Below the pieces are notes generated by a model. It saw only the letters and a program-made list of their open reading frames with translations, had not been told where the DNA came from and did not search any database. The position numbers and the translations under genes were made by a program. From assembly GCF_988243305.1 (NCBI RefSeq), contig NZ_OZ547136.1: a stretch of DNA of 64,000 nt. One strand, 5' to 3'. Below are positions 1 to 16,005 of this stretch, piece by piece (position 1 is the first letter of the stretch; every line of letters starts with the position of its first letter).

Positions 1-524
1 GCGTGCGTGCGGTTCGCGATCTGAAAGCGCTCTACCCGCACAAAATCGTACTGGCTGACGCCAAAATTGCCGATGCAGGCAAAATCCTTTCGCGTATGTG
101 CTTCGAAGCCAACGCTGACTGGGTGACCGTGATTTGTTGTGCGGATATCAACACCGCCAAAGGTGCGCTGGACGTGGCAAAAGAGTTTAACGGCGACGTG
201 CAGATCGAACTGACCGGTTACTGGACCTGGGAACAGGCGCAACAGTGGCGCGATGCAGGTATTCAGCAGGTGGTTTATCACCGCAGCCGTGACGCGCAGG
301 CCGCTGGCGTGGCATGGGGTGAAGCCGATATCACTGCGATCAAACGTCTTTCCGATATGGGCTTCAAAGTCACCGTCACCGGTGGCCTGGCGCTGGAAGA
401 TCTGCCGCTGTTCAAAGGCATTCCAATTCATGTGTTTATCGCCGGTCGCAGCATCCGTGATGCCGCTTCTCCGGTTGAAGCCGCGCGTCAGTTCAAACGT
501 TCCATCGCCGAACTGTGGGGCTAA
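1..524 (+). CDS. ulaD: 3-keto-L-gulonate-6-phosphate decarboxylase UlaD (5' end outside window)
   Basis: Translation matches the UlaD/SgbH decarboxylase C-terminal 173 aa (recalled); immediately followed by a ulaE start, and ulaF lies after the island. Confidence 0.9.
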
Positions 525-533
525 GGAGCGGAT

Positions 534-647
534 ATGTTGTCCAAACAAATCCCGCTTGGCATCTATGAAAAAGCGCTCCCCGCCGGGGATGAGCTTAAGA
601 TAGCTATAACATTGAATAATAAAAATATATTTAAATATATCGTATAA
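534..647 (+). pseudogene. ulaE: ulaE 5' fragment (L-ribulose-5-phosphate 3-epimerase), first 18 codons then island-derived read-through
   Basis: MLSKQIPLGIYEKALPAG matches the UlaE N-terminus; frame then enters AT-rich island sequence and stops. Confidence 0.8.
576..589. repeat. 14-bp direct repeat CTCCCCGCCGGGGA, left island junction (att core)
   Basis: Identical 14-mer at 50681..50694; deleting 590..50694 restores a continuous ulaE reading frame (…[13 protein letters not shown]…). Confidence 0.75.
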
Positions 648-669
648 ATAGCCCCCAATATAGCCCCCA
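647..669. repeat. Tandem ATAGCCCCCAA x2 (candidate integrase arm-type sites, left end)
   Basis: Two copies 1 bp apart; same TAGCCCCCA motif occurs twice at 50522..50542 just upstream of the integrase start. Confidence 0.45.
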
Positions 670-795
670 AGGTGTAGTTGTTATACATGAAGGTATATTG
701 AACTCTGTTGAAATATTATCTGTAATGGTTCAGTGAATGCAGCATACCTACCTGTCTTGTTCCGGGACGAGACACAATATCTGTGATATATAAGT

Positions 796-1644
796 CTATA
801 CTGAAGAAGAGACTTTTCCCGCATAATGTTTCGCAATAATATCATTTAGCCGATCAACCAGTTCTGGTTTCCTGAACGTGATATGTGCGGAGCCCTTCTT
901 AAAGTATCTGATGCTGAACATCTCATCTTCATAGCACGCTTTGCCCTGAACGGAGCGGATGTGATCATCCAGACGAATAGTGATGTTTTCCCGGTTGTCG
1001 GGGATTGGTTTGCCGCTGAACAGGTGCAGCATTCTTTCCTGGTCGGCAAGTCTATCTGCCTGTTGCCCGGTGATAAGATGCAATCCCCATCGGTCCCATC
1101 TCACCAGATTGTTGACGATAATTTTATTGCCAAATTTACAGGGGGAGTTGGTTTTGTAATTCCAGCTCAGCCCTCTGAAGAGGTTGATCACACCTCGCTC
1201 AAACACTTCATCCTTATTCTGGTGCAGTTGTTCAAATGTGCTCAGGATATTCGCCTCGCTGATTTCCGGAAAATTATCGTACTCCAGTGACCGGTACCAT
1301 GTATCACGGGCCTGTGCATCCATTAATGACAGCATCCCTGAACGTTGCATCAGGTCACGCCAGATTTCGCGGTCAAGGTTGCGGGTGATAGCTTTCATTG
1401 CGGTTTCCGTTTTATCCATCAGCCAGCAGCCGCAGCGAAAATCCTGTTTCATGGCCCAGTCCCGGGCGGTTTTACCTCCAATACTTTCTGTCAGTACTGA
1501 GATTTCTGCCAGTTGCCGGATAAGTGTGTCGATTTGCAGCAGCGCACTCTTTCGCACAGCTAGAATGTGGCTGACTGAGGTGGAGCAGATAACGTCCGTA
1601 TGCCCGTTGACCACTTCCGGACGGGAGGCTGTGATTTCAGACAT
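796..1644 (-). CDS. Hypothetical protein (282 aa) at the distal end of the CP4-like backbone
   Basis: Long ORF, same strand as the backbone genes; family not recognised. Confidence 0.5.
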   Translation of the reverse strand: MSEITASRPEVVNGHTDVICSTSVSHILAVRKSALLQIDTLIRQLAEISVLTESIGGKTARDWAMKQDFRCGCWLMDKTETAMKAITRNLDREIWRDLMQRSGMLSLMDAQARDTWYRSLEYDNFPEISEANILSTFEQLHQNKDEVFERGVINLFRGLSWNYKTNSPCKFGNKIIVNNLVRWDRWGLHLITGQQADRLADQERMLHLFSGKPIPDNRENITIRLDDHIRSVQGKACYEDEMFSIRYFKKGSAHITFRKPELVDRLNDIIAKHYAGKVSSSV

Positions 1645-1728
1645 AATCGTTTTTCCTTTTTACTGATAAACGAAAACGCCAGCCGTATTCAGGCTGGCGT
1701 CAGTGGAATGAAGTCTGGTGAGTAAGAC

Positions 1729-1926
1729 TCACCGGTTCTGTTGCAGAAACTGCACCTGGCGCAGGGTACGGATATCTTCCCTGGCCTGTTCAATGCAGGG
1801 CAGCAGTGCTGCTGAATCCGTGTTATCCTCATCGTTGTCGAAGATAATCCCTGATTCGCAGTCAATATTGTCCTGCAGCCACGCAATCAGAATATCCAGC
1901 GCCGTTTCTGTGGTTAATAATTTCAT
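1729..1926 (-). CDS. Small hypothetical protein (65 aa, MKLLTTETALDILIAWLQDN…)
   Basis: In-frame internal Met of a 144-aa ORF; lies just downstream of the YeeW-like gene. Confidence 0.35.
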   Translation of the reverse strand: MKLLTTETALDILIAWLQDNIDCESGIIFDNDEDNTDSAALLPCIEQAREDIRTLRQVQFLQQNR

Positions 1927-1945
1927 CCAGTGTCTTTTGTCCTGA

Positions 1946-2434
1946 TTACCAGTCGAAAGTGGGTAAATCCGGCAGACATTCTGCGCTGGCATCCAGATGA
2001 ATGAGACTGACGCCATAACGCCGGATGAGAGTGACAACCAGACGACGGAACGTTTTTGACAGGCCCAGGCGTTTAAGCTGCAGAATCGGGTATGACCATG
2101 CATTGGCACGTAACAGATATCCGCTGCCTGTAAAATGAATCCATTCTGATTCGCCGGTGTCATTCGTCTGATGTGACAGCGAGTACAGCCAGGCGTTGTC
2201 TGTTTCCGTGATATGTGCGGTGCTGCAGCGTATACCGCTCAGGGCAGCAGAGGGGGGCATGCTGTCAGTTGCGGTCCGGTCAGATGCATCAACAACACGA
2301 AGGGAGTAGCCATTATCGCAGACCACGTTAATCAGTTCGGCAAGCTCAATACCATCGATGTCAACGACAATGCGCCCCATGTTCAGCGCCTGCACGTTAA
2401 TGCTGTCGGCCTCCAGCGTCAGGGCCAGTTTCAT
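1946..2434 (-). CDS. YeeW-like hypothetical protein
   Basis: 162-aa ORF directly downstream of cbtA, the position YeeW-type genes occupy in CP4-44-like elements. Confidence 0.5.
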   Translation of the reverse strand: MKLALTLEADSINVQALNMGRIVVDIDGIELAELINVVCDNGYSLRVVDASDRTATDSMPPSAALSGIRCSTAHITETDNAWLYSLSHQTNDTGESEWIHFTGSGYLLRANAWSYPILQLKRLGLSKTFRRLVVTLIRRYGVSLIHLDASAECLPDLPTFDW

Positions 2435-2478
2435 TGTTTCGCCTCCGGATGCTTACCCAGGATAATGTCATTTACCGT

Positions 2479-2808
2479 TCAGTAGTGGCTGCGGGTCATC
2501 AGGCCGGTTGCCCGGCGGGCCCGGAGAATATCAATGCTGTTGATTAACTGCGACGGGGCTCCTGCGCTGAATCCCGGCTGGTCAGTTCGTACCAGCGCGT
2601 ATTTTTCAACGAGAAAGTTCACCGCATCACACAGTGAAATCCCTGCCTCAATATGCTGCTCAATCACACGTTCATCAGCGAACGGTGTGTCATTCAGCGT
2701 GAGGCCATAGTGCTGGTCCAGCAGTCGGGTGAGCAGTGTCTGCCAGATGGTGACGGGAGACGGGCAGCCCGATGCCTCCCGTACGTGAGTGTCGGGTAAT
2801 GTATTCAT
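2479..2808 (-). CDS. cbtA: CbtA/YeeV-family toxin (type IV toxin-antitoxin, cytoskeleton inhibitor)
   Basis: …[52 protein letters not shown]… matches CbtA/YkfI/YpjF; start taken at MNTLPD. Confidence 0.8.
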
Positions 2809-2854
2809 CTTAAGTTCTCTGTAACAGGTGGTGATAAAGGGGAGATATCCGGGG

Positions 2855-3232
2855 TTATACGGTGATTGTGGGCGCTGCCGGTGTCGGATAAACAGCCAGA
2901 TAAACGTAACCACAACTGCCAAGGGTATCGGCTTCGCAGGTCAGCCCTTTCGCATACAGTGTGACGGTATGCTGATGACGGGGATTCAGTTCACCGCCGG
3001 TGAGCATGAGTTCCAGTTGTTTCATCAGCAACGGAAAGGCCTGGTCCAGATGGTACGCATCCGCGTCGCTGAACCGGCCTCTGATACCGGCGCGGTCGGC
3101 AAGGTAATGCAGGCGGTTACCCTCCTGTACCAGTCGGGCCCCGAAACAGGGCGTCACGGTGCAGGGCCCCCCCCACCAGGGGCGGTCGTGATTGTCGTCG
3201 GGATGCGTTGTCCCGGGGAGTGTGTCTGACAC
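2855..3232 (-). CDS. cbeA: CbeA/YeeU-family antitoxin
   Basis: [21 protein letters not shown]…[12 protein letters not shown]… matches CbeA/YafW/YfjZ; directly upstream of cbtA. Confidence 0.8.
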
Positions 3233-3307
3233 GATAAAGTCCTCACAAAAAATCGGTTAAGAATGGTCCGGTGGTGGCGATAATGCTGCTCATCAGAATG
3301 CCCTGAT

Positions 3308-3529
3308 TCAGTTCAGGGTGACGCTCATCAGCCGGACATACGGGCCAAAACTGTCCTTATGGCGTTCAGCAAACACGGCCAGCACTCCGGGAATATCCTG
3401 CACTTCACGACCGGTATACGCCCCGGCACTGCCGTGCCAGCGGTACTTACCGGTGCAGAACGGAAAAAGACGGGATGCCGGATGCTGTTGGTGAATACGC
3501 ATGGCTTCACCACGGGTGATGATTTTCAT
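3308..3529 (-). CDS. DUF987 protein (YeeT/YkfH-like)
   Basis: 73-aa ORF between RadC-like and cbeA, the conserved position of this family. Confidence 0.65.
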   Translation of the reverse strand: MKIITRGEAMRIHQQHPASRLFPFCTGKYRWHGSAGAYTGREVQDIPGVLAVFAERHKDSFGPYVRLMSVTLN

Positions 3530-3597
3530 GATGTGATACCTCTGAAGACAGAAGATAAAAGTGAAAACAGGTATGATGTGGTTGTGACGGTGACGGG

Positions 3598-4089
3598 TTA
3601 AAGCAGACCGTGTTCCGCAAAGGAGAAAACCTGGCTGCCACCGATTATCAGATGGTCCGGTACCCGGATATCCACCAGGGCCAGTGCCTGTACCAGACGC
3701 TCAGTGATAAGGCGGTCTGCCTTGCTGGGGGTGACTTCACCGGACGGGTGATTGTGCGCCAGCACCACGGCAGCGGCATTGTGGTACAGGGCGCGTTTAA
3801 TCACCTCCCGGGGATGGACTTCTGTGCGGTTGATGGTGCCAGTGAAGAGGGTTTCACCGGCAATCAGCTGATTCTGGTTGTTCAGGTACAGCACCCGGAA
3901 CTCTTCACGCTCCAGCCCTGCCATGTTCAGAATCAGCCATTCCCGTGCCGCACGGGTGGAGGTGAAGGCCACGCCGGGTTCATGAAGATGGCGGTCCAGG
4001 GTTTTCAGGGCCCGTTGAATGAGGCTGCGCTCGCCGGGCGTCATCTCTCCGGGCAGAAAGGAAAGCTGTTGCATTGTACTTCTCTCCAT
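3598..4089 (-). CDS. RadC-like JAB/MPN-domain protein (YeeS/YkfG/YfjY family)
   Basis: HNHPSG JAMM motif; conserved CP4-type context. Confidence 0.85.
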   Translation of the reverse strand: MERSTMQQLSFLPGEMTPGERSLIQRALKTLDRHLHEPGVAFTSTRAAREWLILNMAGLEREEFRVLYLNNQNQLIAGETLFTGTINRTEVHPREVIKRALYHNAAAVVLAHNHPSGEVTPSKADRLITERLVQALALVDIRVPDHLIIGGSQVFSFAEHGLL

Positions 4090-4563
4090 TCAGTCGATGA
4101 TGCGCATAATGGCGCTGCATTCCGGATGCTGCAGGGCGTAATCCCGCAGCCGGTAATAATGGACCGTCATGGCATAACACTCCGTACGACAGGCATGATG
4201 ACTGTACGTCATCAGACAGGCAGCAATGCCGGCAGCTTCCGGACTCATTTCAGCGCGGTTACCGTTCATGGCATTGAACAGTACCCATGTTTCGTCATCA
4301 TCGTCATCCGGTTCGGGTGCCATAAATGCCCCGCCGTTGTTCAGGGTGTACAGATTCCAGATACCACCGCAGTAGTCTTCGCACAGACGGTCCATCCAGC
4401 CGAAGACACGGGGCTCCAGGGTCACCCACTGTGGAATGAGGCCAAAGTGCTGCGGCCAGAAGCTGATGCGCTGTTCATCAGGGACGAGGGTGGCAACCAG
4501 TTGTTGCAGGTCAGTCTCCGGTGCACAGGCTGAAGAGGTGGTGTTCTGAGACAATGTTTTCAT
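4090..4563 (-). CDS. Antirestriction protein, KlcA/ArdB family (YfjX-like)
   Basis: Acidic DDDDDE stretch and conserved context upstream of radC-like; start taken at MKTLSQ. Confidence 0.7.
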   Translation of the reverse strand: MKTLSQNTTSSACAPETDLQQLVATLVPDEQRISFWPQHFGLIPQWVTLEPRVFGWMDRLCEDYCGGIWNLYTLNNGGAFMAPEPDDDDDETWVLFNAMNGNRAEMSPEAAGIAACLMTYSHHACRTECYAMTVHYYRLRDYALQHPECSAIMRIID

Positions 4564-4656
4564 GTATGAAATCCTTGTAATGTGAATAAATGAGAGGGAG
4601 TAAAGGCCGGGGGCTGACAACATCACGTTCATCACTGAGCGTGAGACCCGGTAATG

Positions 4657-4902
4657 TCAGGGATGAATGATATTCGGCTGAAATTCCGGACAGCCGTACG
4701 CGTAACCGTTCCGGTCACAGACGGATGGCCAGATGCCATTGCCTGTACTCAGTCTGCACAGACTGAGTTCTCCGGGACGGTAAAGCAGACGGGTACACCA
4801 GGCGCACAGGTCATCATCAGAAATGGAACGACACCCCGGCAGCGCCTCCGGGGCGTCGGGTGATTCTGGTACCTGAATCACGCCTTCAGGGATATGTTTC
4901 AT
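4657..4902 (-). CDS. Small hypothetical protein
   Basis: ORF between DUF932 and antirestriction genes; family not recognised. Confidence 0.3.
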   Translation of the reverse strand: MKHIPEGVIQVPESPDAPEALPGCRSISDDDLCAWCTRLLYRPGELSLCRLSTGNGIWPSVCDRNGYAYGCPEFQPNIIHP

Positions 4903-5723
4903 CAGCGCATACTCTCCAGCAGCGTTTCTGCCATTACCCACAATGCGCGGTTGAGCTTAATATCGGTGTCGATGCTGTGAATGGCACGGGTGTGGATACG
5001 TTTTCCTCTGGCACTGCGCCCGGAAATCCCCCCTTTCAGCATATTCTCCTGGATGGTCTGATAAGCACTCCACAGGTCCTTTCCGTAATCCTCCCGGCGT
5101 CGTGGCGTCAGAATGTCGGCGGTGGTGACGGGCTGATGTTCGTCACCATAACGGTAAGTCAGTGCCGCCTGTGCCAGCGCCTGGCGTGCCGGTGGCGGCA
5201 GGACCAGCGACTGCATGGCATCACGCTTCTCCTCTATCCGGTCAAAAACCCCCACCACCTCGTAAGCCCCTTCGATAACTTTCTCCACTACATTTCCCCG
5301 GTGCGGAACACGCACTTCCCCCAGAGACTGACCACAGACGCACCCGTTCTGGCAGACGAACCTGAAGTAACCCGGCAGCATCTGGTAGCTGGATGAACCG
5401 TCATGAGAGTTGAGCAGAATAATTTCAGGGACATGCTGACCGGTTATCTGTCCGGCCCGCCGCAGACGCAGCATGTGTTTTGTGTATTCCCGGCGACCCG
5501 GGTCACGCACACGTGTCTGGCAGGCGAAGAATGGCTGAAAGCCTTCCCGCTGCAGGCTTTCCAGTACGGTGATGGTGGGAATGTACGCATAGCGTTTACT
5601 GCGGGAAGTATGCCGGTCTTCACCGAAAATACTGGGAACATAGTGCATCAGTTCTTCGTGTGTCAGCGGACGGTCACGGCGTATCTGGTTTGCAGCATAA
5701 CCAAAACGACTGGCTAGTCGCAT
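4902..5723 (-). CDS. DUF932-family protein (YfjQ/YafZ/YkfF-like)
   Basis: 273-aa ORF with the recalled family signature (…EIILLNSHDGSSSYQ…); conserved CP4-type gene. Confidence 0.7.
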   Translation of the reverse strand: MRLASRFGYAANQIRRDRPLTHEELMHYVPSIFGEDRHTSRSKRYAYIPTITVLESLQREGFQPFFACQTRVRDPGRREYTKHMLRLRRAGQITGQHVPEIILLNSHDGSSSYQMLPGYFRFVCQNGCVCGQSLGEVRVPHRGNVVEKVIEGAYEVVGVFDRIEEKRDAMQSLVLPPPARQALAQAALTYRYGDEHQPVTTADILTPRRREDYGKDLWSAYQTIQENMLKGGISGRSARGKRIHTRAIHSIDTDIKLNRALWVMAETLLESMR

Positions 5724-6115
5724 AATTTGCTCCTTATCGGTGGTTAAGATTTACTGGTGTAATAAATGAAAAAGCCACGTCTCCCGGAGAAGACGCGGCC
5801 TGATGGACGAAATTAATGAGGTTTATTGTCTGAGAAGACCGTCACTGGCGAACCTTCCGGCGTCAGTCTCTGCGTTGCGGATAACCCGACGGAAATGAGT
5901 TCCCTGGTCATCGTCGATAAACACATTGCGGTAAGCTGTTGTGATGACAACAGCCTGCTCGCGTGAGAAAGGGACTTCGGGCAATAAACGTGACATACAA
6001 CCAGACCTGTATTTGGTTCCCTGAAAATATAAGTCCCTGTCATCATGGCAGAGCCGTATTTACTTTTGATATCAATAAATTAATAACGCGAAGATGAACC
6101 GCATAACTTACGCCT

Positions 6116-6379
6116 TTAATTTGTTTTGTTTACGTAGTCCCTGACCAGGTACGCGAATTCGTGAACGCCAGTTTCACCAAACCAAATCAGGTAACCAGGG
6201 TCGATGTTGTAATAGTAACCAACGACTTTATGCGTTTTTGGGTTATAGAGTGTTACGATATAGTCCCAGCCGCAGGCGTGGGCTTTACAACCGCCACCTT
6301 CTACCCAGGTCGTTCCGTTAATGTTTACAGGATACGCACCACCATCAGGACCATCCATATAGCCGTCTTCCCCAAACAT
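6116..6379 (-). pseudogene. Possible C-terminal remnant of a gene truncated by IS1
   Basis: 87-aa ORF whose upstream side runs into the IS1 end at 6547; no credible start. Confidence 0.25.
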
Positions 6380-6561
6380 TCCGTTTAACCCAACAGGGTT
6401 TAATGCTTTGTCGATAGCAGCTCTGTAGGTAGCGTCACCTTCGTATAACTCGTACGTTGTTGGACATGCACCAGGCTGGTCAGCCCGGGCTTTTGAGTCG
6501 CATTTAAGTGTCTGATTTACAGTGGCGGCGTTTGTGTCAGGACTTAGGTAATGACTCCAAC

Positions 6562-7065
6562 TTATTGATAGTGTTTTATGTTCAGATAATGCCCGATGAC
6601 TTTGTCATGCAGCTCCACCGATTTTGAGAACGACAGCGACTTCCGTCCCAGCCGTGCCAGGTGCTGCCTCAGATTCAGGTTATGCCGCTCAATTCGCTGC
6701 GTATATCGCTTGCTGATTACGTGCAGCTTTCCCTTCAGGCGGGATTCATACAGCGGCCAGCCATCCGCCATCCATATCACCACGTCAAAGGGTGACAGCA
6801 GGCTCATAAGACGCCCCAGCGTCGCCATAGTGCGTTCACCGAATACGTGCGCAACAACCGTCTTCCGGAGCCTGTCATACGCGTAAAACAGCCAGCGCTG
6901 GCGCGATTTAGCCCCGACATAGCCCCACTGTTCGTCCATTTCCGCGCAGACGATGACGTCACTGCCCGGCTGTATGCGCGAGGTTACCGACTGCGGCCTG
7001 AGTTTTTTAAGTGACGTAAAATCGTGTTGAGGCCAACGCCCATAATGCGGGCTGTTGCCCGGCAT
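6562..7065 (-). CDS. insB: IS1 InsB (expressed as InsAB' by frameshift)
   Basis: 167-aa IS1 transposase ORF overlapping insA. Confidence 0.9.
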
Positions 7066-7259
7066 CCAACGCCATTCATGGCCATATCAATGATTTTCTG
7101 GTGCGTACCGGGTTGAGAAGCGGTGTAAGTGAACTGCAGTTGCCATGTTTTACGGCAGTGAGAGCAGAGATAGCGCTGATGTCCGGCGGTGCTTTTGCCG
7201 TTACGCACCACCCCGTCAGTAGCTGAACAGGAGGGACAGCTGATAGAAACAGAAGCCAC
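6984..7259 (-). CDS. insA: IS1 InsA
   Basis: 91 aa, [23 protein letters not shown]… zinc-finger/HTH InsA. Confidence 0.9.
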
Positions 7260-7425
7260 TGGAGCACTTCAAAAACGCCATCATACACTAAATCAGTAAG
7301 TTGGCAGCATCACCTAAGTGCTTTTACGATGAATTTCATGATAACTCTCCTTATGACATTAATAAATGCGTTAATCTTAAATCTCACCCAGGTAATATAT
7401 ATCTGAAAATATTTTCAACAACACC

Positions 7426-7450
7426 AGACAGGAAAAACACCACCACAGGC
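7426..7450 (-). terminator. Putative rho-independent terminator downstream of the patatin gene
   Basis: On the minus strand CCACC-N6-GGTGG stem followed by a T-rich tract, about 25 bp after the stop codon. Confidence 0.4.
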
Positions 7451-7473
7451 GGTGGCGTTTCTTTGGGGCGTCT

Positions 7474-8544
7474 TTATTTAATCCGGGCCATCGCGCTTCT
7501 CAGTGCCAAATCTGCCTCTTCCGTTATCTCCAGACTTTTCTGCAACACCGTTTCTGACCGGGACAGTGCCTGACGTGCTGCCAGCGGTTTCCGGATATGC
7601 TCCATCGTCAGCATCGTGTCCTCGTAGCCCTGCTGACGCCAGGCGTCGGTATGTGCCGACGTGAAACTGAGCAGACCGCCACTGTTGCCACCATCACCTG
7701 CATATTTCAGCCTTTTCCGGGGACGGATCTCAAGGATTGTGGTGTCCGGAAAAGCCTGGCGATCCCATAAAGAACCGTCACTCAGATGCGACACAATCAC
7801 CATATTGCATCCGGCATCGACCAGAGGCGTTACAGGGGTATTTCCCTGCATATTTCGCCATCCTCCCATACCACCATCACCGAACATTGTCCCCTGAACC
7901 TCACGGGGACGGAACAACAGGGGCAGTGCGGCTGACGCAAGCAGAGCCTCTTTCTGCTGTCCGCGGGGCAGACTCTGGATATGCTGAAAAACGGCGTTTT
8001 TCGTGGTTCCGGAACCCAGTTCAGCACGAATGCAGTCAATAATATCCTGCATGCCCCCTTCTGTGGGGTACAGCGACACATACAGCGGTAGCCCGTCTGC
8101 CAGAGCATCTGTATCAAGATAATGATCCATCAGCGCTGTCAGGGGCCCATCTGACAACAACGGCTGAGTCATCGGATTGTCGAAGCCGTTGATTATCGAT
8201 ATATGGCGAAGAAGTGTCGTAAGCAGTGCTCCTGCACGTCCGGGGATCTGGCAGAGGTTCATTGCCTGGAACAATTTTTTCAGCAATGAAAAGTAAACCG
8301 ATCGGTTTACCGACAGCACCTGATTATTCCCAAGATGATCCCAGAGCGCCTCCAGGCGTACGGCAGCTTCTGACAGATCGGGAGAGGCCGCGATAATGGC
8401 ACCATTGAATGCGCCAATGCTGGCCCCTGAAACCATGCTGATCTGTGTACCACACTCTGCCAGTGCCTTAACCACTCCCGCCTGATAAGCGCCCACCGCC
8501 CCACCGCCGGACAGCACCAGCCCTGTTTTTATTTCTATACTCAT
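7474..8544 (-). CDS. Patatin-like phospholipase (356 aa)
   Basis: GGGAVGAYQAG glycine-rich oxyanion motif, GASIGA (GxSxG) nucleophile, DGG catalytic Asp; start overlaps upstream stop (ATGA). Confidence 0.85.
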   Translation of the reverse strand: MSIEIKTGLVLSGGGAVGAYQAGVVKALAECGTQISMVSGASIGAFNGAIIAASPDLSEAAVRLEALWDHLGNNQVLSVNRSVYFSLLKKLFQAMNLCQIPGRAGALLTTLLRHISIINGFDNPMTQPLLSDGPLTALMDHYLDTDALADGLPLYVSLYPTEGGMQDIIDCIRAELGSGTTKNAVFQHIQSLPRGQQKEALLASAALPLLFRPREVQGTMFGDGGMGGWRNMQGNTPVTPLVDAGCNMVIVSHLSDGSLWDRQAFPDTTILEIRPRKRLKYAGDGGNSGGLLSFTSAHTDAWRQQGYEDTMLTMEHIRKPLAARQALSRSETVLQKSLEITEEADLALRSAMARIK

Positions 8545-9446
8545 GCAGCCCCCTTCTGAAATATTTCATCGACCATACTTTCAGAGAGGCGTTCTGCAGA
8601 GCAGAGACGGGGCATGCGAACCGGTAAGTGTTCTGCAGCCTGCGTGGTTGACCAGATCACCGGATGCTGCTCTTCACTGCACCAGTCCCCCAGCCAGTTA
8701 ATCGCGTCATGCCACTCGTTATCTGCCTGCTCCCGGCCCTGACCACCAAGCCAGTCCAGAGTGTTCAGACGCACGGTTGCACTACCGCCACTCTCCTGTG
8801 CCATCTGCGTTAATGCTTTATGTCTGAGAATATCCAGTAGCTGGTTAACCTGGCCTGTTTCGCCCTGACGTATCACATCACCAAACGCGCCCCAGCGAAG
8901 CTCTTCAAGTGCCACATAACAACGTCCGGCAGGGGAAAATGACGCATATCGCCCGGCGCTCCACCAGGAGAATATCTGCTCAAGATGTAACTGCGCCCGC
9001 TGAACCAGGTCAACACGGTGGAGTTTTTCTTCAAGATGATTCAGTTTCTGGTGAACCTGATCGGCCAGGGTGAGTAACTGCTCCCGCGTATCTGCGGAAT
9101 AATGCGCCAGCCTGGCAGTATCACTGACCAGTGAACTGACCCTGTCGTTTACCCGGGTAATCGCGTAGTTTGTGGTGGCAAGTGACGTTGTCAGCTCCGT
9201 CAGCCAGCGCAGGGACGCCTCAACGCCCTGTGCAAGCGAAGCATTGATGGCATTCTGCCGTGCAGCACCTTCGCCGCTCAGCCCCTCTTTTAACCGCCGG
9301 AAGAACGTGCGCTCTCCGGCCGTACGGATATGCTCCTGTGCAACATCAATACCGTTTGCGAAATCAACCACAAATTTTTCAGGAAGACAGGTGAGTACCT
9401 GACATACCCGGTTATCAGCAATTTGTTGAATAAATGGTGAAGTCAC
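8541..9446 (-). CDS. Hypothetical protein, partner of the dynamin-like GTPase (possibly YjcZ-like), 301 aa
   Basis: ORF overlapping both neighbours by 4 bp; no TM segments; YjcZ-like assignment is only by synteny with crfC(yjdA)-yjcZ. Confidence 0.6.
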   Translation of the reverse strand: MTSPFIQQIADNRVCQVLTCLPEKFVVDFANGIDVAQEHIRTAGERTFFRRLKEGLSGEGAARQNAINASLAQGVEASLRWLTELTTSLATTNYAITRVNDRVSSLVSDTARLAHYSADTREQLLTLADQVHQKLNHLEEKLHRVDLVQRAQLHLEQIFSWWSAGRYASFSPAGRCYVALEELRWGAFGDVIRQGETGQVNQLLDILRHKALTQMAQESGGSATVRLNTLDWLGGQGREQADNEWHDAINWLGDWCSEEQHPVIWSTTQAAEHLPVRMPRLCSAERLSESMVDEIFQKGAA

Positions 9447-11827
9447 AGCATTGTCTCCAGTTCTTCCCTTAACGCCTTACTGTCAGTAATGAGCTCAGGA
9501 ACCCTTTCATTTAACGCCTGAAGACGCCCGGTCAGCCGTTCCTGCGCCTGCTGATCGCGTTTATGATCTTCAGAGCTCTGAATCAGCGTGTTACGCAGCT
9601 GTTCAACTTTCTCCCTGAATGTACAGAAAAAGGCATCGATTTCCTGGCGGACGGGCTGGTTAATATCCTGCTCAATGGATGCCTGCAGCTCCCCGAAATA
9701 TGCCCGGGTCAGTGACATCACTTCCTCTCTGACCTTGTTGATATTGATCACGCTGCGGCTCACATCCACACTGTACTCTTTCCAGCCCCAGTCACTGGTG
9801 TTTGCCCATCGACAAAGCGTACCCCAGACACCATCCTGTCGACAGCGACGGGTTACTGTCTCCGTTCTTTCCTCCATAAGCGCGCTCAGATTTGTTTTTA
9901 CTGCGAGCCGGGTCTGTAACTGGCTGACTGCCGGAAAACTGATTTTTACAGTGAAACCTTCATCCTCCAGACGGGCATTGATGCGTCCGGCAATATTTTC
10001 TGTGGCGTACAGGGCCGTACCACGAAAACCTGTTTCAATACCCCTGACGATTTTTTCCAGTTCAGGACGGAACTGTGCTTCAGCCTCACGGTGCAGGCTG
10101 GTCACGGTCGATTCGATTTGCGTCATCAGTTCAAGGGCTTCCCTGCGATCACTGAATTTTATTTCGGGGCTGTCCGGATCAAAGTCCCGCATCCTGTCAT
10201 GCTGATTTCCGGTTCCGAAAATATCGTGAAAGAAAGCGAATGCGTTTCTCTCCCGGGGCTGCGCTGAATTTTCTTCCTCCAGCATTTGCTGTTCTTTGCG
10301 TTTACCGCTTCTGAAATAGTCATTCAGCTCCTCTTCCAGTGAGGTGCAGACCCCCGTCAGTAATTCCCGGGTTCTGGCATCGATCTCCTCCATGGCCATT
10401 CTGACATCAGCGGTCACCTGCTCCTGACAGTCCGCGATTTCCCGGATATCCGCAAGCAGGCTGGTGATATGCGACTGCAGTGACTGAATGCTTTGCTGTA
10501 GCCCCTGATGGCGTAATGACAGATATTCGCTGACATTTTCCGCATTCTGCATCAGTTTTGCGGCGGCAGAATCAACCGCCAGTGCCGCCGCTCTGGAATG
10601 GGAGCTCTGTATGACTTCCGTTATCAGTTGATCGATAAGTGAGCCTTCCCACAGGTCTGTCGCCCCTTCGGTTGCCATTTCACTGTCTTTACAGACGTAT
10701 TCTTTTTTCATGCGACCGAAGGCTTCCCTGACAAAATCATCGACCCAGGCTTCATCAACAGGAAGGGTTCTGTTTTTCCGTAACTCATGAAGCGCACGGT
10801 TAGCCAGGTACGCCTGACGTGATGAGCCTGGATAAACGCGGGAGGCGGGCAGCACATCGCTGTTCAGCATTGCCGGAACTTTCTGGCGTACGGCATCTGC
10901 CCCATCGCCATTGCGGTCTTTCTCATCAAATTTATTGACCAGCACAAACAGGCGGCCAGCTGATACGTCAGCAATGGCATTAAGCTCTTTACGGACGTCT
11001 TCATCCGCTTTTGAGTTCATCTGGGTGTAATCCATCACCGCCAGCACCGCAGAGGCTTTCTGCAGTTGATCCCGCATCATCACTTCCATCTGCGGTTGTC
11101 CGGCCTCATTAGGGCCGGGGGTATCCAGCAGTGTGAGTGTTCCCTGGCATGGATCCATCCCCACCAGATGGCTGAATTCCACGTCGATCACCGGCAGTTT
11201 CTGCACTTCTGCGTATTCATCAAAAGGAAACTCACTCCCCATTGCCGCAGCAAGGCGAACCAGATCGTTTAACGATGCCAGTCCGGTAAAAATTTCCTCC
11301 TCCCCGTGGTATTCATTTTTGAGCCAGCCATCATTTGCCAGAATATCCAGCAGTTCGCAGGTATCCCCGGTTTGCTGCAGGGTCTGTGCGACTTGCTGTC
11401 CTGCCGGGGTGTCGAGTTTTTGTTTCAGTGTGCTTAATAAATTGCGGACGGGCTGAATATGTTCCAGATGGAGGACCGGCTCAGTTTTTCCGGGAACGTG
11501 GCGGATGAGCGTCGGTACAGAGGTCATGGGGCGGTTACGGTTAGGCAGAATTTCCTGCCCCACAATGGCGTTGATGGTGGTTGATTTACCTGCTTTCATC
11601 GTGCCGACAACAGCCAGCACCATCTCCCTGCGGGCGGTTTTGATTTGTTCGCCCTCCAGCTCCTCAATTCTTTTCAGTGCTTTCTGTTTATCAAAAAGCA
11701 GTCTGTTTTCGTTCTTACTGTCAGATAACACATCCGGCTCATCAACCATTTGCCGGAGCAGATTAATGTTCAGTTGCAAAAGTCGGTCGGCTTCATCACA
11801 AAGCAGGGCGATGTTCTTTTCGTGCAT
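9443..11827 (-). CDS. Dynamin-family GTPase, CrfC/YjdA-like bacterial dynamin-like protein (794 aa)
   Basis: G1 GTMKAGKST, G3 DTPG, G4 NKFD; N-terminal GTPase region resembles E. coli CrfC as recalled; long coiled-coil-rich C-terminus. Confidence 0.85.
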   Translation of the reverse strand: MHEKNIALLCDEADRLLQLNINLLRQMVDEPDVLSDSKNENRLLFDKQKALKRIEELEGEQIKTARREMVLAVVGTMKAGKSTTINAIVGQEILPNRNRPMTSVPTLIRHVPGKTEPVLHLEHIQPVRNLLSTLKQKLDTPAGQQVAQTLQQTGDTCELLDILANDGWLKNEYHGEEEIFTGLASLNDLVRLAAAMGSEFPFDEYAEVQKLPVIDVEFSHLVGMDPCQGTLTLLDTPGPNEAGQPQMEVMMRDQLQKASAVLAVMDYTQMNSKADEDVRKELNAIADVSAGRLFVLVNKFDEKDRNGDGADAVRQKVPAMLNSDVLPASRVYPGSSRQAYLANRALHELRKNRTLPVDEAWVDDFVREAFGRMKKEYVCKDSEMATEGATDLWEGSLIDQLITEVIQSSHSRAAALAVDSAAAKLMQNAENVSEYLSLRHQGLQQSIQSLQSHITSLLADIREIADCQEQVTADVRMAMEEIDARTRELLTGVCTSLEEELNDYFRSGKRKEQQMLEEENSAQPRERNAFAFFHDIFGTGNQHDRMRDFDPDSPEIKFSDRREALELMTQIESTVTSLHREAEAQFRPELEKIVRGIETGFRGTALYATENIAGRINARLEDEGFTVKISFPAVSQLQTRLAVKTNLSALMEERTETVTRRCRQDGVWGTLCRWANTSDWGWKEYSVDVSRSVININKVREEVMSLTRAYFGELQASIEQDINQPVRQEIDAFFCTFREKVEQLRNTLIQSSEDHKRDQQAQERLTGRLQALNERVPELITDSKALREELETML

Positions 11828-11884
11828 TATTTAACCTTCCTGAGACGCATTTTCATGACAACCACGGAGGAGGTCATTTACTAC

Positions 11885-11910
11885 AAACGATCGTTTATAA
11901 CGATCGATAT
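11885..11910. promoter_or_regulatory. Palindromic operator-like motifs upstream of the dynamin operon (AAACGATCGTTT, CGATCGAT)
   Basis: Perfect 12-bp palindrome plus adjacent palindrome in the 199-bp gap between the GTPase stop and the dynamin start. Confidence 0.3.
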
Positions 11911-12026
11911 ACTCTATTAACTTGAGAAACACAACGCAAGGGGACAACCCGGGTATGGCTGCGTTTGCATAGTGTTTTCATGGAGTTAAAAATCTGTAAC
12001 AATAGCCTGGTACATCACCACCGGGT

Positions 12027-12899
12027 TCAGAAGAAAATCCAGTTCCATACCGCGCGGGCAACAGAGACCACCGAGTCACGGACGGCTCGCAGAACCGTAC
12101 GAGCCACAGAGGCAACACAGACGCTCTCCGCTGTGTCAAATATCCGGTCCACCGCACCGGTAAACTGTTCACGGGCCTGAGAGCGGACAGACTCCGTGCG
12201 CAGTTCGTCCTGCAGGCGGGTCATCAGGGGGCTGGCGGCATGGTCGGGAAGCGCTGTCATGAGCGCACTGACCAGCGTATCCAGTTCCCAGCCGGTGCAG
12301 GCCGATACGGCCACAACCGGATGTACGGGCCGGAACAGCCGGAATACCGCCTCCGTTTTCTCACGAATGTTCTGTGCCTGTGCGGGAGAAGGCTGAATGC
12401 CGGCCATATCCCATTCATGGCAGGGCTCCGTTTTGTCGGCCTGCGTCACCACAAACAGCACCTGCTGATGTCCCCGGTGCAGGATGTGTCGCCAGAAATA
12501 CTCATCCACAGACAGGGCACGGTCATCGGCTTTAATCAGCCACAGTACCAGGTCAAGTTCAGGCAGAATGTCACGGTACAGGGCTTCATACTCTGCATCC
12601 CTGTCCCGGCTCTCGCCCACCCCGGGCAGGTCAGTGATAATCATGCTGTGACCGTGGCCACTCAGACGGAAGCGCCGCACTTCCCGGGTGCCGGCGTGAA
12701 CATCACTGACCGGGGTGACCTCCCCCTGAAACAGCGCATTACAGAGTGAGGATTTACCGGCCCCGCTTTTACCCATAATGCCAATCACGGGTTCGTGACT
12801 GGTGAGTTTGCGCAGATGTTCCTGGATGTGACGGGAAAGTGAGTAAGGCAGGGAGGAGAGCGGTTTTTCAATTGCCTCAATGGCATCAGACGGATTCAT
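12027..12899 (-). CDS. YfjP/YeeP/YkfA-family GTPase
   Basis: P-loop GIMGKSGAGKSS and DLPG motifs; conserved CP4-type gene; start taken at MNPSDAIE. Confidence 0.8.
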   Translation of the reverse strand: MNPSDAIEAIEKPLSSLPYSLSRHIQEHLRKLTSHEPVIGIMGKSGAGKSSLCNALFQGEVTPVSDVHAGTREVRRFRLSGHGHSMIITDLPGVGESRDRDAEYEALYRDILPELDLVLWLIKADDRALSVDEYFWRHILHRGHQQVLFVVTQADKTEPCHEWDMAGIQPSPAQAQNIREKTEAVFRLFRPVHPVVAVSACTGWELDTLVSALMTALPDHAASPLMTRLQDELRTESVRSQAREQFTGAVDRIFDTAESVCVASVARTVLRAVRDSVVSVARAVWNWIFF

Positions 12900-12983
12900 A
12901 CATGTATTCCCGGTGAAAAAAGACAAAACCCCCGCACACCGGAAAGGTGGCGGGGGACTCACAGAGATAATATATGTCTGAAA

Positions 12984-13901
12984 TTATCTGGAATGTCGGT
13001 ACCTTTTATACTCTTCAACAATCAGGTCATGCAGCATTTCGCCGGTACTGAGTCTTCTGACCCTCGATAATTCTTTGAGCTGCGCCCTGGTTTCTGCGTC
13101 AAGAAAAAACTGTACATTGACTTTATCTTCCTGCATTTTTTTGTACTTGCGCTGCGCCTTGGCCTTATTGAAACTGTTTCTGAAATTTTTTATATCGTCA
13201 GGTGAGGTGAGTGTACAGGTAACCCATATGTCAAATGAAAGGTGAATTGCGTGGTAAATATCAGCAGAACCAGGAAAACTGGCCAGTTTTTCCAGTGCAA
13301 TATTTTTTCCCTTCAAATAATTCCATGTCCATATGCATTCATGTTCGTTCTCCGGGAGGAGGTAACTGAAAGGACTCTTTGATTTAAATGCCCGTATCCA
13401 TCTGTCTTTGGTCTGGATTATCCACTCATCCCGCAAATTCTTATCAGAAAGAATATCGAGAACTCTGAGTATTTGTCTGAACTGTGTCGATGAGTCCGAC
13501 GGGAAGGCATTCCCTTCTAAATACTCTTCTTTAAGATACAGTTTATTCTTTTGAAGCAAGTCTGCACTTATTTTTGCCCTGTTATTCTGGATAAACTGCA
13601 TCAACAGATACCAGGAAAATAAGCATGCGCGTTCACTGCCCGCGATCCAGGATATTTTTTCCAGGGGGACCAGGAAGGCCTGGGCCTTCAGACGCATACC
13701 AGAAATGATTTGTTCAAGTTCAAAATCTGAAAGTGTGATGTTCAGATTTTCTCTGTTTTTTTTTATGTAAGCGATAAAACGTTCCGGGGGATCATAAACA
13801 TTAAGGGGCAGTACGGAGATATTACGCTCTCCAAGATAATAAGAGTAATACGCATTTGTTCTTTCATTCATAACCTTATCCGACAAAATTTTCTGAACCA
13901 T
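12984..13901 (-). CDS. Hypothetical protein (305 aa), AT-rich, with C-terminal ribbon-helix-helix-like segment
   Basis: Long ORF with low-GC codon usage; C-terminus VQFFLDAETRAQLKELSRVRRLSTGEMLHDLIVEEY resembles CopG/Arc-type RHH. Confidence 0.55.
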   Translation of the reverse strand: MVQKILSDKVMNERTNAYYSYYLGERNISVLPLNVYDPPERFIAYIKKNRENLNITLSDFELEQIISGMRLKAQAFLVPLEKISWIAGSERACLFSWYLLMQFIQNNRAKISADLLQKNKLYLKEEYLEGNAFPSDSSTQFRQILRVLDILSDKNLRDEWIIQTKDRWIRAFKSKSPFSYLLPENEHECIWTWNYLKGKNIALEKLASFPGSADIYHAIHLSFDIWVTCTLTSPDDIKNFRNSFNKAKAQRKYKKMQEDKVNVQFFLDAETRAQLKELSRVRRLSTGEMLHDLIVEEYKRYRHSR

Positions 13902-15101
13902 CCCCTTTCTCCGGTTGCTTAAAAATTAAACACAACAAGGTGATAATAACATGATAAAAAGAAGTTTATAATGGTATATTAAGGTGGTCAATAAAAAGGC
14001 AATCTGCGCACTGTATAGTCATTATGACAGGAAATGCAGGAGGAAGGGAAGGTAACCGGCTTCGTTATGCTGACAGGAATACCTGTTATCATGGAAGTGC
14101 ATTCATGTGGCCGACGTAGCTTAAGAGGATGGAAGAGTGGAGACTGCAGACAGGGGGTATTGAAAGGTAAACATGTTTCGCCCGCCAGCTGCACCGGAGG
14201 CCAGCATCACTTTTTTTACGTTGTAACCTGGTATGCATTCCGGCTTTGATGATTACAGTCAGAGGGCAGCAGACTGACGTTATTTAACCGGACAGCAAAA
14301 TTATGGACACTGAAATATCGTCCGTTAATACCTCGTTTGTCGGTGTGGTATTCCCTGTATTACCGGCGTCACCGATAAAGAGAGTTATAAACGCCAGAAA
14401 GGTACCTGCTTTATGCCGGGGAACACTTATGGAAAATGAAGTCTGAAAAGGAGCACAATGAAAAGAGACGTGTCCCGTAAATATAACGAATCATCGCAGG
14501 ATATGCATTATCAGGTGATACCAGAGTGCATTAAACTGCCGTCACGGATAAGAATATACAACATTTCTGATAACAAAACATCATAACGTGTTTCAGATAT
14601 GTTCCGGCATCAGTCTGACGGATATTATTTCCCGGGAAAACAAACCTGCTACTGTGACGGTTAACTGTATCTGCATAAATTATTTATGATGAAAGAACAG
14701 TATTACGGATTCAAATATCATCCTGTTTGCATTCAGGCGGACATTCCCGGATGCCGAAAAGAATATCCTGCAGGCTGAGTGAGTCTCTTCCACAGTGCCG
14801 GGATCGCTGTCGCCACGTACATATTGTCACCAGGATGGGTATGTACCGCAGCATGCCATTTCTGGTGAATAACCGCACCTGCACATTCAGTCTGCTGAGA
14901 ACCTGGCGTGCATCGGGCTGTAAAGAACATCCCTGTCCGTGGCTCCTCTGGTGGTGTTGCCTGCTCAGTAATGACAGGATGCCCTTAAGACGCCCGTCAT
15001 GGCTCAGTATGATGACGACGAACACGCTCTGCAGGTGAGCATGCGGGGCCGGGAGCATCATCATTTCCGTATTTTGTCACACCTTCCGGAAGCAACCGGC
15101 A

Positions 15102-15719: not shown

Positions 15720-15798
15720 GGGGATATAACAGGCAGCAGAATGCCGCCGGCAGGCCGGGGATTACGTCTGCTGCGGGTGAACGGATAACGGTCAGAAA

Positions 15799-16005
15799 TT
15801 ACGGACGGGACTGTGCAATACGCGCCTGCAGCCAGGCTTCCACTTCACTTTTCAGCCATCGGGAACTGCGGCCCAGCTTGATGGGGGCCGGAAAGGCCCC
15901 ATCCCTGATGAGTTTGTAAAACCACTTATCGGTCAGGCCAGTCAGTTGAGTGATAAACGCCATGTCGACCATCTGGTCATCCATCAGTGAAACTGGGGTG
16001 GTCAT
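15799..16005 (-). CDS. alpA: AlpA-family transcriptional regulator / excisionase-like protein
   Basis: MTTPVSLMDDQMVDMAFITQLTGLTDKWFYKLIRDGAFPAPIKLGRSSRW… matches AlpA. Confidence 0.8.
   Translation of the reverse strand: MTTPVSLMDDQMVDMAFITQLTGLTDKWFYKLIRDGAFPAPIKLGRSSRWLKSEVEAWLQARIAQSRP

Follow-up and report, generated by a model that had tools for sequence, protein, structure and literature searches.

Three elements of E. coli K-12 are the closest described relatives of the locus analysed here. CP4-44 has the gene order yeeP-isrC-flu-yeeR-yeeS-yeeT-cbeA-cbtA-yeeW, with isrC-flu-yeeR placed between yeeP and yeeS. CP4-57 and CP4-6 carry a five-gene core (yfjX-yfjY-ypjJ-yfjZ-ypjF and yafX-ykfG-ykfH-yafW-ykfI, respectively), preceded by a DUF932 gene that comes directly after a GTPase gene, the slot between these two being empty. 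The CP4-57 core is the lfgABCDE operon, for which protease activity of LfgB has been reported, with caveats about solubility and purity stated by the authors of the assay (PMC10846083). The toxicity of CbtA, YpjF and YkfI and their FtsZ/MreB targets are established (PMC5624674, PMC5371832), and published phenotypes related to CbtA/CbeA concern oxidative stress and biofilm (PMC5371832). ArdB and KlcA have anti-type-I restriction activity in vivo; ArdB-type proteins are active in vivo, not in vitro (PMC2836571).

The window is a stretch of 64,000 nucleotides of contig NZ_OZ547136.1 (assembly GCF_988243305.1), in which an earlier note had described a "CP4-57/CP4-44-like" module. Synteny was proposed there as a check, and the window is indeed collinear with all three K-12 elements. 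Gene order and orientation are those of CP4-44, with nucleotide identities of 87% over yeeS-yeeW and 96% over yeeP; YeeS, YeeT, CbeA and CbtA share 84-98% identity with their counterparts, the core being near-orthologous. CP4-57 and CP4-6 have the same order of core genes but are only paralogous (61-82% protein and 64-76% nucleotide identity) and have different small genes separating DUF932 from the antirestriction gene. Given these nucleotide identities (87-96% against 64-76%), the element is CP4-44-like rather than CP4-57-like, and only the CP4-44 half of the label describes its closest K-12 relative. Unlike the window, CP4-44 of K-12 lacks the DUF905, DUF932, 81-aa and antirestriction genes, and its YeeW is truncated; isrC-flu-yeeR stands where the window has dynamin, RdcB-family and patatin genes and an IS1. 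The window differs further by its insertion site, in ulaE, and by a nonsense codon in cbtA.

The island and its distal block

The segment 796-5996 is very probably the conserved integrase-distal backbone of a CP4-44-type genomic island with a tyrosine integrase. The island (~50 kb, 590-50680) interrupts ulaE; its site is not a tRNA gene. Its attachment cores were set by alignment with the uninterrupted ulaD-ulaE of K-12, and in CUPS04 the annotation to the right of the island includes ulaE and ulaF.

576-589: attL core, a 14-bp direct repeat CTCCCCGCCGGGGA found by repeat search inside ulaE, at about codons 15-19
49322-50503, minus strand: island tyrosine integrase, adjoining attR, with Arm-DNA-bind_3, Phage_int_M and Phage_integrase domains; RefSeq-annotated in CUPS04
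50681-50694: attR core, where the 14-bp repeat recurs; the remainder of ulaE comes next

The island is mosaic. Positions 797-35677 are 98-99% identical to the island of BR1220 at selC/setC (NZ_CP093068.1; 98% over 797-16000, about 99% on to 35677), while the ends are of the ulaE type. The BR1220 island also has the dynamin, RdcB-family and patatin genes, the IS1 and the whole block, but it occupies another chromosomal site, has other ends and carries an intact cbtA. The ulaE island of CP55_Sichuan (NZ_CP053731.1) has the same ulaD-DUF4942 junction and the block at 88-94% nucleotide identity; it lacks the 81-aa gene, and an additional 645-bp 'antitoxin' gene separates DUF987 from the YeeU-family antitoxin.

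The block comprises eleven genes, all co-oriented and running toward the island end. They are listed below in that order with two terminator-like hairpins:

5823-5996, minus strand: DUF905 small protein (YkfF-like), first block gene after the cargo slot; PF06006, E 4.7e-13; 55% identity with K-12 YkfF; RefSeq-named in BR1220
5772-5801, minus strand: terminator-like hairpin between DUF905 and DUF932, 13-bp stem and T tract; intergenic fold z = -3.6
4902-5723, minus strand: DUF932 protein (YfjQ/YafZ paralogue; YubP of IncF plasmids); PF06067, E 7.2e-52; 75% identity with YfjQ and YafZ
4657-4902, minus strand: 81-aa Cys-rich protein, 184 homologues across Enterobacterales; the start ATG and the DUF932 stop codon share 1 nt
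4090-4563, minus strand: ArdB/KlcA-family antirestriction protein (YfjX/LfgA paralogue); Antirestrict PF03230, E 2.2e-37; 75% identity with K-12 YfjX
3598-4074, minus strand: RadC-like JAB/JAMM metalloprotease-type protein (YeeS orthologue; LfgB/YfjY paralogue); PF04002, E 4.8e-45; 98% identity with YeeS, 77% with LfgB
3308-3529, minus strand: DUF987 protein (YeeT orthologue); PF06174, E 3.3e-38; 96% identity with YeeT
2855-3232, minus strand: CbeA (YeeU) type IV antitoxin; CbeA_antitoxin PF06154, E 2.2e-53; 94% identity with K-12 CbeA
2479-2808, minus strand: CbtA (YeeV) type IV toxin; CbtA_toxin PF06755, E 8.3e-61; 84% identity with K-12 CbtA
1946-2434, minus strand: DUF5983 protein, the full-length form of K-12 YeeW; PF25638, E 8.1e-32 (N-terminal) and PF19419, E 3.4e-22 (C-terminal); 69% identity with YeeW over the 52 aa surviving in K-12
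1729-1926, minus strand: 65-aa ORF, near-identical homologues of which are RefSeq-named 'DUF957 domain-containing protein'
1675-1701, minus strand: terminator-like hairpin before DUF4942, 10-bp stem and T tract; fold z = -4.0
796-1644, minus strand: DUF4942 protein, last gene of the island; PF13708, E 2.5e-68; PHROG 'DNA methyltransferase'-type match, E 1.3e-16

Family assignments have Pfam E-values of 1e-13 to 1e-68; the 81-aa protein matched no Pfam or PHROG family and the 65-aa ORF nothing in current Pfam. The seven genes that had been named earlier, DUF932 to YeeW-like, lie on the minus strand in the order and positions assigned to them, each with a Pfam match far above the gathering score, and the expected similarity to the YfjQ, YfjX, YfjY, YeeT, CbeA and CbtA families holds in Pfam and in the K-12 identities. 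The limits of the module need correction. The proposed range, 1729-5723, has the right order, but its lower bound is the stop of the 65-aa ORF and not of the YeeW-like gene; this ORF and the 81-aa gene were missing from the list, and the conserved block passes both ends of the range, to DUF4942 and DUF905.

At a coverage of at least 80%, the block is found in 3,804 of 5,426 complete E. coli genomes, at a median of 3 places per genome, and its ORFs are intact in thousands of genomes with 90-97% nucleotide identity (10 of the 11 are intact here). The same order and RefSeq names recur whether the island lies at selC, at ulaE, at a tRNA-Ser gene or near the fim/nan genes, and RefSeq annotation already covers the block. 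The description "mostly known biology" is apt: the block is confirmed as genuine and correctly read, a well-known and ordinary backbone that many E. coli islands have at their far end.

Structural matches agree with several of these assignments. The antirestriction protein, for which an upstream GTG start at 4635 would give a 181-aa form, matches ArdB of E. coli CFT073 over its full length (PDB 2WJ9, E 2.7e-110) with no difference of note; KlcA of IncP plasmids (2KMG, E 2.6e-21) also belongs to PF03230 but is a distant plasmid homologue. The JAB protein matches 2QLC (E 6.5e-25) and has an intact HxHx7Sx2D motif, HNHPSGEVTPSKAD, at residue 107. CbeA matches 2INW (E 4.6e-83) and 2H28 (E 6.2e-77).

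The one interrupted gene is cbtA. DNA alignment with BR1220, CP55 and K-12 places a premature TGA at 2479-2481, where the relatives have AGA, so that CbtA has 109 aa instead of 125; the ancestral ORF reached 2431. The identical 81-nt stretch with this change was absent from the 5,426 genomes searched, and the nonsense codon is, by this sequence comparison, strain-specific. Translational coupling to DUF5983 is lost and the toxin may be weakened. The truncated protein keeps the Pfam domain (profile positions 1-109 of 112) and the conserved F65, and its length equals that of YpjF, the toxic paralogue of CP4-57 with 109 aa (PMC5624674).

The variable cargo slot

Upstream of the block, collinearity with the comparison locus L002 breaks at 5971 and 12024, which delimits a segment of variable cargo:

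5997-12023, minus strand: variable cargo slot
About 6116-6540, minus strand: truncated Ivy-like ORF
6547-7314: IS1
7474-8544, minus strand: patatin-like phospholipase (Pfam, RefSeq names)
8541-9446, minus strand: YjcZ/RdcB-family protein (Pfam, RefSeq names)
9443-11827, minus strand: dynamin-family GTPase (Pfam, RefSeq names)
12027-12962, minus strand: YeeP-type GTPase at the proximal slot border; PF01926, E 1.1e-14; 96% nucleotide identity with the K-12 yeeP pseudogene

The operon had been placed in the slot where CP4-44 has flu (Ag43), and the CP55_Sichuan island bears this out: collinear with the window on either side of 5972-12023, its genes in that interval encode IrmA, an 838-aa YeeR-like protein and Ag43. 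Further strains have other small cargo there, the variability being seen across eight loci. The term "defence-like" for the operon expresses resemblance only. The dynamin, RdcB-family and patatin genes have just weak PADLOC matches (LeoBC, 1.9e-5; phospholipase effector, 9.9e-5), and they share 31-33% identity with K-12 RdcA/RdcB, regulators of a diguanylate cyclase (PMC6510439).

Possible roles of the block

By analogy with characterised relatives, the block would be an establishment-and-retention set to the benefit of the element and not of the host. ArdB would block type I restriction of the incoming element and the JAB protein would act as a zinc metalloprotease, like its paralogue LfgB. 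CbtA would inhibit FtsZ and MreB and CbeA would counteract it; such a pair would penalise loss of the island, and we infer a role in island retention. Cargo is swapped in the slot, which lies between the genes for the YeeP GTPase and DUF905/DUF932. Since some three copies of the block are present in a typical genome, it probably also gives homology for recombination between islands, which would fit the mosaic make-up seen here.

A tentative rival reading, which we consider possible but doubtful, is that the block corresponds, on the chromosome, to the leading region of a conjugative plasmid. The island would be mobilised by conjugation and the block expressed early in the recipient, for anti-defence and establishment; DUF932, the 81-aa protein, JAB and DUF4942 would then be uncharacterised establishment factors. 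These four and the antirestriction protein have homologues in such leading regions. DUF932 shares 64% identity with an IncF protein whose gene neighbours the SLT gene and traM, the expected place of oriT in F-like plasmids. Its homologues occur on at least 5,000 plasmids, of which 4,372 are conjugative. Homologues of the 81-aa protein occur on 1,172 plasmids, including pOXA-48 (IncL), whose leading region, adjoining mobA/traI (again where oriT is expected), encodes JAB (60% identity), 81-aa (58%), DUF4942 (34%) and antirestriction (33%) homologues together with Hha and ssb, all co-oriented. Leading regions have also been reported to unite, on a single strand, genes for anti-restriction, methyltransferases, SSBs and toxin-antitoxin pairs (PMC11541004). 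Against this, gene order on the plasmids differs at identities of 33-64%; on the plasmids there are also ssb, psiB-type genes and a relaxase, none of which was seen in the island, whereas the island adds CbeA/CbtA, DUF987 and DUF5983. A pattern search, which is a weak test, found no F-type nic sequence, the largest non-coding gap within the block (99 nt) is too short for an Frpo-type single-strand promoter of ~300 nt, and common gene ancestry does not prove a common mode of transfer.

That the block is mainly a host stress-response module, with JAB degrading host regulators and the toxin-antitoxin pair modulating growth under stress, is unlikely. In K-12, induction of the paralogous CP4-57 operon runs through MqsR/MqsA, LfgB degrades MqsA and lfgB deletion causes sensitivity to H2O2, acid and heat (PMC10846083); cells that lack all three toxin genes are less resistant to oxidative stress (PMC5371832), and the JAB protein, 77% identical to LfgB, retains its metal-binding motif. 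These data nevertheless describe a paralogue, studied in a single laboratory strain, with the assay caveats given above, and the block is strictly tied to mobile islands and plasmid leading regions, which points to element-level selection. Toxin-antitoxin systems are often anti-phage, and the neighbouring phospholipase and dynamin genes could suggest abortive infection by CbtA/CbeA, possibly with the dynamin-RdcB-patatin operon. Anti-phage defence is nonetheless highly improbable: no PADLOC model was matched by any module protein, an anti-restriction gene is the opposite of defence, and the block is unchanged beside unrelated cargo such as Ag43 or beside none, so that it is not functionally tied to that operon. 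Scarcely more probable is that the block is what remains, in decay and without function, of a cryptic element, in spite of the cbtA nonsense codon, the adjoining IS1 insertion and truncated gene, and the partial deletion of K-12 copies (the yeeP pseudogene, truncated yeeW, and CP4-44 without DUF932 and antirestriction genes). The remaining ORFs are intact here and in thousands of genomes, catalytic and binding residues are conserved, and even the shortened CbtA retains its whole domain at the length of toxic YpjF.

Gene content, order and relatives of the block

The DNA between positions 5996 and 796 carries a run of eleven genes on the minus strand, as determined from the ORF listing and from inspection of start sites. 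Nine of these genes were assigned to a Pfam family, all with scores well over the gathering thresholds, and two strong terminator-like hairpins bracket the unit from DUF932 to the 65-aa ORF.

Features of the CP4-44-like block (coordinates, strand, assignment)
5823-5996, minus, DUF905 (Pfam E 4.7e-13)
5772-5801, strong terminator-like hairpin (fold z = -3.6)
4902-5723, minus, DUF932 (E 7.2e-52)
4657-4902, minus, Cys-rich ORF of 81 aa, without Pfam family
4090-4563, minus, antirestriction protein (Antirestrict, PF03230; E 2.2e-37)
3598-4074, minus, RadC-like JAB protein (PF04002; E 4.8e-45)
3308-3529, minus, DUF987 (E 3.3e-38)
2855-3232, minus, CbeA_antitoxin (PF06154; E 2.2e-53)
2479-2808, minus, CbtA_toxin (PF06755; E 8.3e-61)
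1946-2434, minus, DUF5983, N- and C-terminal domains (E 8.1e-32 and 3.4e-22)
1729-1926, minus, ORF of 65 aa, without Pfam family; named DUF957 by RefSeq in relatives
1675-1701, strong terminator-like hairpin (fold z = -4.0)
796-1644, minus, DUF4942 (E 2.5e-68), the last gene of the block

The seven genes named in the earlier note are thus present on the strand and in the order it gave, as seen from the Pfam matches and the ORF coordinates. They lie within its range of 1729-5723, although the lower bound is that of the DUF957-named ORF and not of the YeeW-like gene. The order typical of this backbone at the integrase-distal end (GTPase, a variable cargo slot, DUF932, antirestriction, JAB, DUF987, antitoxin, toxin) is found here as well. 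Among NCBIfam models only those for RadC match the block, TIGR00608 over its cut-off and NF000642 under it. An Rfam search of the whole window gave nothing in 1-12000, where an isrC-like sRNA was not found, and a scan for sigma-70 promoters returned no more sites than shuffled sequence.

The annotated regions of the K-12 elements CP4-44, CP4-57 and CP4-6 were compared to the window at the DNA and protein level. The similarities to the expected families hold, and all three elements are collinear with the block. CP4-44 is the near-orthologue, its DNA being 87% identical across yeeS-yeeW and 96% across the yeeP pseudogene; at the protein level the identities are 98% for YeeS, 96% for YeeT, 94% for CbeA and 84% for CbtA, and 69% for YeeW over 52 residues, which are all that survives in K-12. 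CP4-57 and CP4-6 are collinear paralogues with 64-76% nucleotide identity; their proteins are 61% (YkfI), 67% (YafX), 68% (YfjZ), 75% (YfjQ, YafZ and YfjX), 77% (LfgB/YfjY) and 82% (YkfG) identical to those of the block. A megablast search with 1729-5723 against 5,426 complete E. coli genomes gave a match in 5,019 of them. In 3,804 genomes (about 70%) at least one place spans 80% or more of the query length; there are three places per genome at the median and 18 at the most, and 14,714 of the 14,721 places are chromosomal. RefSeq names all of the block genes, with the same family names, in the homologous loci checked, and the same genes appear in descriptive papers on Shigella and STEC islands (PMC6980539, PMC6174562, PMC13182975). 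The block is already known, ordinary biology; the observation is confirmed and its interpretation is supported.

The island in ulaE and its cargo slot

The window starts in ulaD. A 14-bp direct repeat, CTCCCCGCCGGGGA, is found at 576-589, about 200 bp from DUF4942, and again at 50681-50694, with a tyrosine integrase gene (49322-50503) just before the second copy. The repeat lies in ulaE at about codon 19, where an alignment shows K-12 to be uninterrupted, and there is no tRNA gene in the window, the insertion being in neither a tRNA nor a tmRNA gene. The block therefore stands at that end of a ~50-kb island which is distal to the integrase. The target of the insertion is the protein-coding gene ulaE, which makes this a site variant of the CP4-44/CP4-57-type island. 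The insertion splits ulaE and ulaF from ulaA-D, and the junction between ulaD and DUF4942 is common to 63 complete genomes. Just inside both ends of the island (661-683 and 50531-50555), tandem TAGCCCCCA(A/G) motifs occur in the same orientation; these may be arm sites for the integrase or an excisionase.

The interval 797-35677 is 98-99% identical to the selC/setC island of strain BR1220; the outermost segment 590-796 and the integrase end (49322-50680) are instead common to islands at the ulaE site. The island is a mosaic, and this distribution suggests recombination between islands via their common backbone.

The block is of use chiefly as a landmark, for the integrase-distal end of the island and for a slot of variable cargo between the gene for the YeeP-type GTPase (12027-12962) and DUF905/DUF932. 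The content of this slot in the window is as follows.

Features of the cargo slot (coordinates, strand, assignment)
about 6116-6540, minus, truncated ORF
6547-7314, IS1
7474-8544, minus, patatin-like phospholipase
8541-9446, minus, YjcZ/RdcB-family protein
9443-11827, minus, dynamin-family protein of 794 aa

The proposal that this operon stands where other islands hold Ag43 is borne out by the ulaE island of CP55_Sichuan, which has the same ulaD junction and is collinear with the window over 1-5971 and again from 12024; its slot contains IrmA, an 838-aa YeeR-like protein and Ag43. In CP4-44 of K-12 the slot holds isrC-flu-yeeR, between yeeP and yeeS, and in UPEC_U013 the Ag43 set. The slot of CM2 has a single 225-aa gene, which is joined in 1008S19 by an HTH regulator, whereas CP4-57 and CP4-6 have an empty slot in which the GTPase gene is followed by DUF932. 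The position of the slot being so marked, the dynamin-RdcB-patatin operon is exchangeable cargo that occupies the place of Ag43 in other islands. Two minor points of variation fall in the block: the 81-aa gene is missing in CP55_Sichuan, and both CP55_Sichuan and UPEC_U013 have a 645-bp "antitoxin" gene that the window lacks.

That the operon is defence-like is not established. PADLOC 2.0 matches to the slot proteins are weak and partial (the dynamin to LeoBC, 1.9e-5; the patatin to a phospholipase effector, 9.9e-5), short of a recognised system. The dynamin is 33% identical to K-12 RdcA, and the RdcB-family protein 31% identical to K-12 RdcB; RdcA and RdcB make up a GTPase system by which the diguanylate cyclase DgcE is controlled (PMC6510439). 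The interval 7474-11827 is a three-gene operon that PADLOC does not recognise as a system, the first two genes being distant paralogues of rdcA-rdcB with a phospholipase gene added. In 114 complete genomes there is a stretch that covers 80% or more of window 1-12000, operon and block included. The IS1 element cuts the 5' end of the adjacent ORF, and BR1220 has the same insertion. In the truncated ORF there is a CKAHACG motif, along with a sub-threshold match to the Pfam family Ivy (lysozyme inhibitor), with E 0.006; its identification as IrmA was dropped, as tblastn gave no match.

Elsewhere in the island are a group II intron with a reverse transcriptase/maturase (32613-34226), an ALIL pseudoknot, which is an IS3-type frameshift signal (35226-35342), and a match to the STnc100 sRNA (46464-46662). 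Low-GC metabolic cargo occupies 36139-43719 (MFS transporter, amidohydrolase, M20 peptidase, PLP-dependent enzyme and sigma-54 activator), and a truncated HerA-like gene (47963-48745) lies close to the integrase.

Predicted properties of the block proteins

For the antirestriction protein, the match to ArdB of CFT073 (PDB 2WJ9) extends over all 157 residues with E 2.7e-110, and KlcA (PDB 2KMG) is matched with E 2.6e-21. Its Antirestrict domain and these solved structures confirm it as an ArdB/KlcA protein; ArdB and KlcA alleviate type I restriction in vivo (PMC2836571), an activity that the copy here may share. The JAB protein scores 150.8 bits against TIGR00608 (cut-off 133.85), is confirmed by its match to the solved structure PDB 2QLC, and has an intact metal-binding JAMM motif, HxHx7Sx2D, at residues 107-120 (HNHPSGEVTPSKAD). 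Protease activity has been reported, with caveats, for its 77%-identical paralogue LfgB of CP4-57 (PMC10846083).

The cbeA gene is located directly upstream of cbtA on the same strand, with 46 nt between them. The identity of CbeA is confirmed by its matches to the YeeU structure PDB 2H28 (E 6.2e-77) and to 2INW; a PDB sequence search with CbtA gave no match. Characterised CbtA acts as a block on FtsZ and MreB, an effect that is counteracted by CbeA (PMC5624674, PMC5371832). The toxin scores 203 bits against PF06755 (cut-off 25), covering profile positions 1-109 of 112, and aligns without gaps to residues 1-109 of K-12 CbtA. F65, the determinant of the FtsZ interaction (PMC5624674), is kept, in the identical segment AVNFLVEKY. 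At residue 15 the toxin has Cys, in common with YpjF and YkfI, whereas K-12 CbtA has Arg; R15 matters for MreB binding of the K-12 protein, but the residue is not conserved across the family (PMC5624674), and Cys15 is a variant rather than a family-defining feature. The idea that Cys15 abolishes MreB binding, in the manner of R15C, was dropped, because elongation is still blocked by YpjF and YkfI, in which Cys is the natural residue at this position (PMC5624674).

The cbtA gene ends early. A nonsense change at 2479-2481 (TGA, compared to AGA in BR1220, CP55_Sichuan and K-12) leaves a toxin of 109 aa instead of the full length of 124-125 aa, and also abolishes the ATGA overlap with the start of DUF5983, so that toxin and DUF5983 are uncoupled. 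An identical copy of the 81-nt stretch around this codon was found in none of the 5,426 complete genomes, the closest being that of BR1220 with one mismatch. The shortened CbtA may well still work, given that its Pfam domain is complete and F65 is kept, and because YpjF, a toxic paralogue (PMC5624674), is likewise 109 aa long (gene of 330 bp).

The 81-aa ORF has 184 homologues in Escherichia, Citrobacter, Enterobacter, Klebsiella, Salmonella and Yersinia, which have in common the conserved motif GCRSISDDDLCAWC...YRPGE.SLCRL, and it is a real gene. Its ATG overlaps the stop codon of DUF932 by one base, and the protein is translationally coupled to DUF932. The family, conserved across Enterobacterales, has no entry in Pfam or PHROG. 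AlphaFold2 models were too poor for use, both for the 81-aa protein (54-sequence alignment, mean pLDDT 47.5) and for DUF932 (mean pLDDT 54, pTM 0.52; 21 sequences, with only relatives of at least 63% identity to hand). A PDB sequence search with DUF932 gave no match, and Foldseek of its model against PDB nothing credible (best E 0.33; a few RAD52 chains at E ~3 are noise).

Proposed role and kinship with plasmid leading regions

By analogy with characterised relatives, the block would be an establishment-and-retention set that serves the element. ArdB would shield incoming DNA from type I restriction, as its relatives do in vivo (PMC2836571), the CbtA/CbeA pair would make it costly to lose the island, and the JAB protein would act as a zinc metalloprotease like LfgB (PMC10846083). 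Because there are several copies per genome, the block is probably also a patch of homology for recombination between islands, which would fit the mosaic seen here. The rivals to this element-serving reading are that the block is a host stress module, an anti-phage system, a relic, or the equivalent of a plasmid leading region. As regards an anti-phage role, PADLOC 2.0 found no match among the five block proteins scanned.

The leading-region alternative draws on plasmid homologues. At least 5,000 plasmids, including 4,372 conjugative ones, encode DUF932 homologues with 60-64% identity, and homologues of the 81-aa protein occur on 1,172 plasmids, of which 1,129 are conjugative. In an IncF plasmid the DUF932 gene adjoins the SLT gene and traM, and the oriT of F-like plasmids sits beside these same genes. 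In the IncL plasmid pOXA-48 a homologue of the 81-aa protein is found in the leading region beside mobA/traI, in the company of co-oriented genes for JAB (60% identity), DUF4942 (34%) and antirestriction (33%) proteins, Hha and ssb. Leading regions are known as one-strand anti-defence islands with anti-restriction proteins, methyltransferases, SSBs and toxin-antitoxin pairs (PMC11541004). The block therefore draws on the leading-region gene pool. The stronger proposal, that CP4-44-type "cryptic prophages" are conjugatively mobilised islands with the block as the equivalent of a leading region, seems to us improbable. No relaxase, ssb or psiB gene was seen in the island, the block has no non-coding gap of more than 99 nt that would give space for a single-strand promoter, and an F-type nic sequence is absent from the island, although this last is a weak test for an oriT. 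If the proposal were true, the uncharacterised members of the block, in first place DUF932 and its translationally coupled 81-aa partner, would represent novel establishment or anti-defence factors with early expression in a new host. DUF932, the 81-aa protein, DUF987, DUF5983 and DUF4942 rank with the accessory genes most often met in E. coli and conjugative plasmids.
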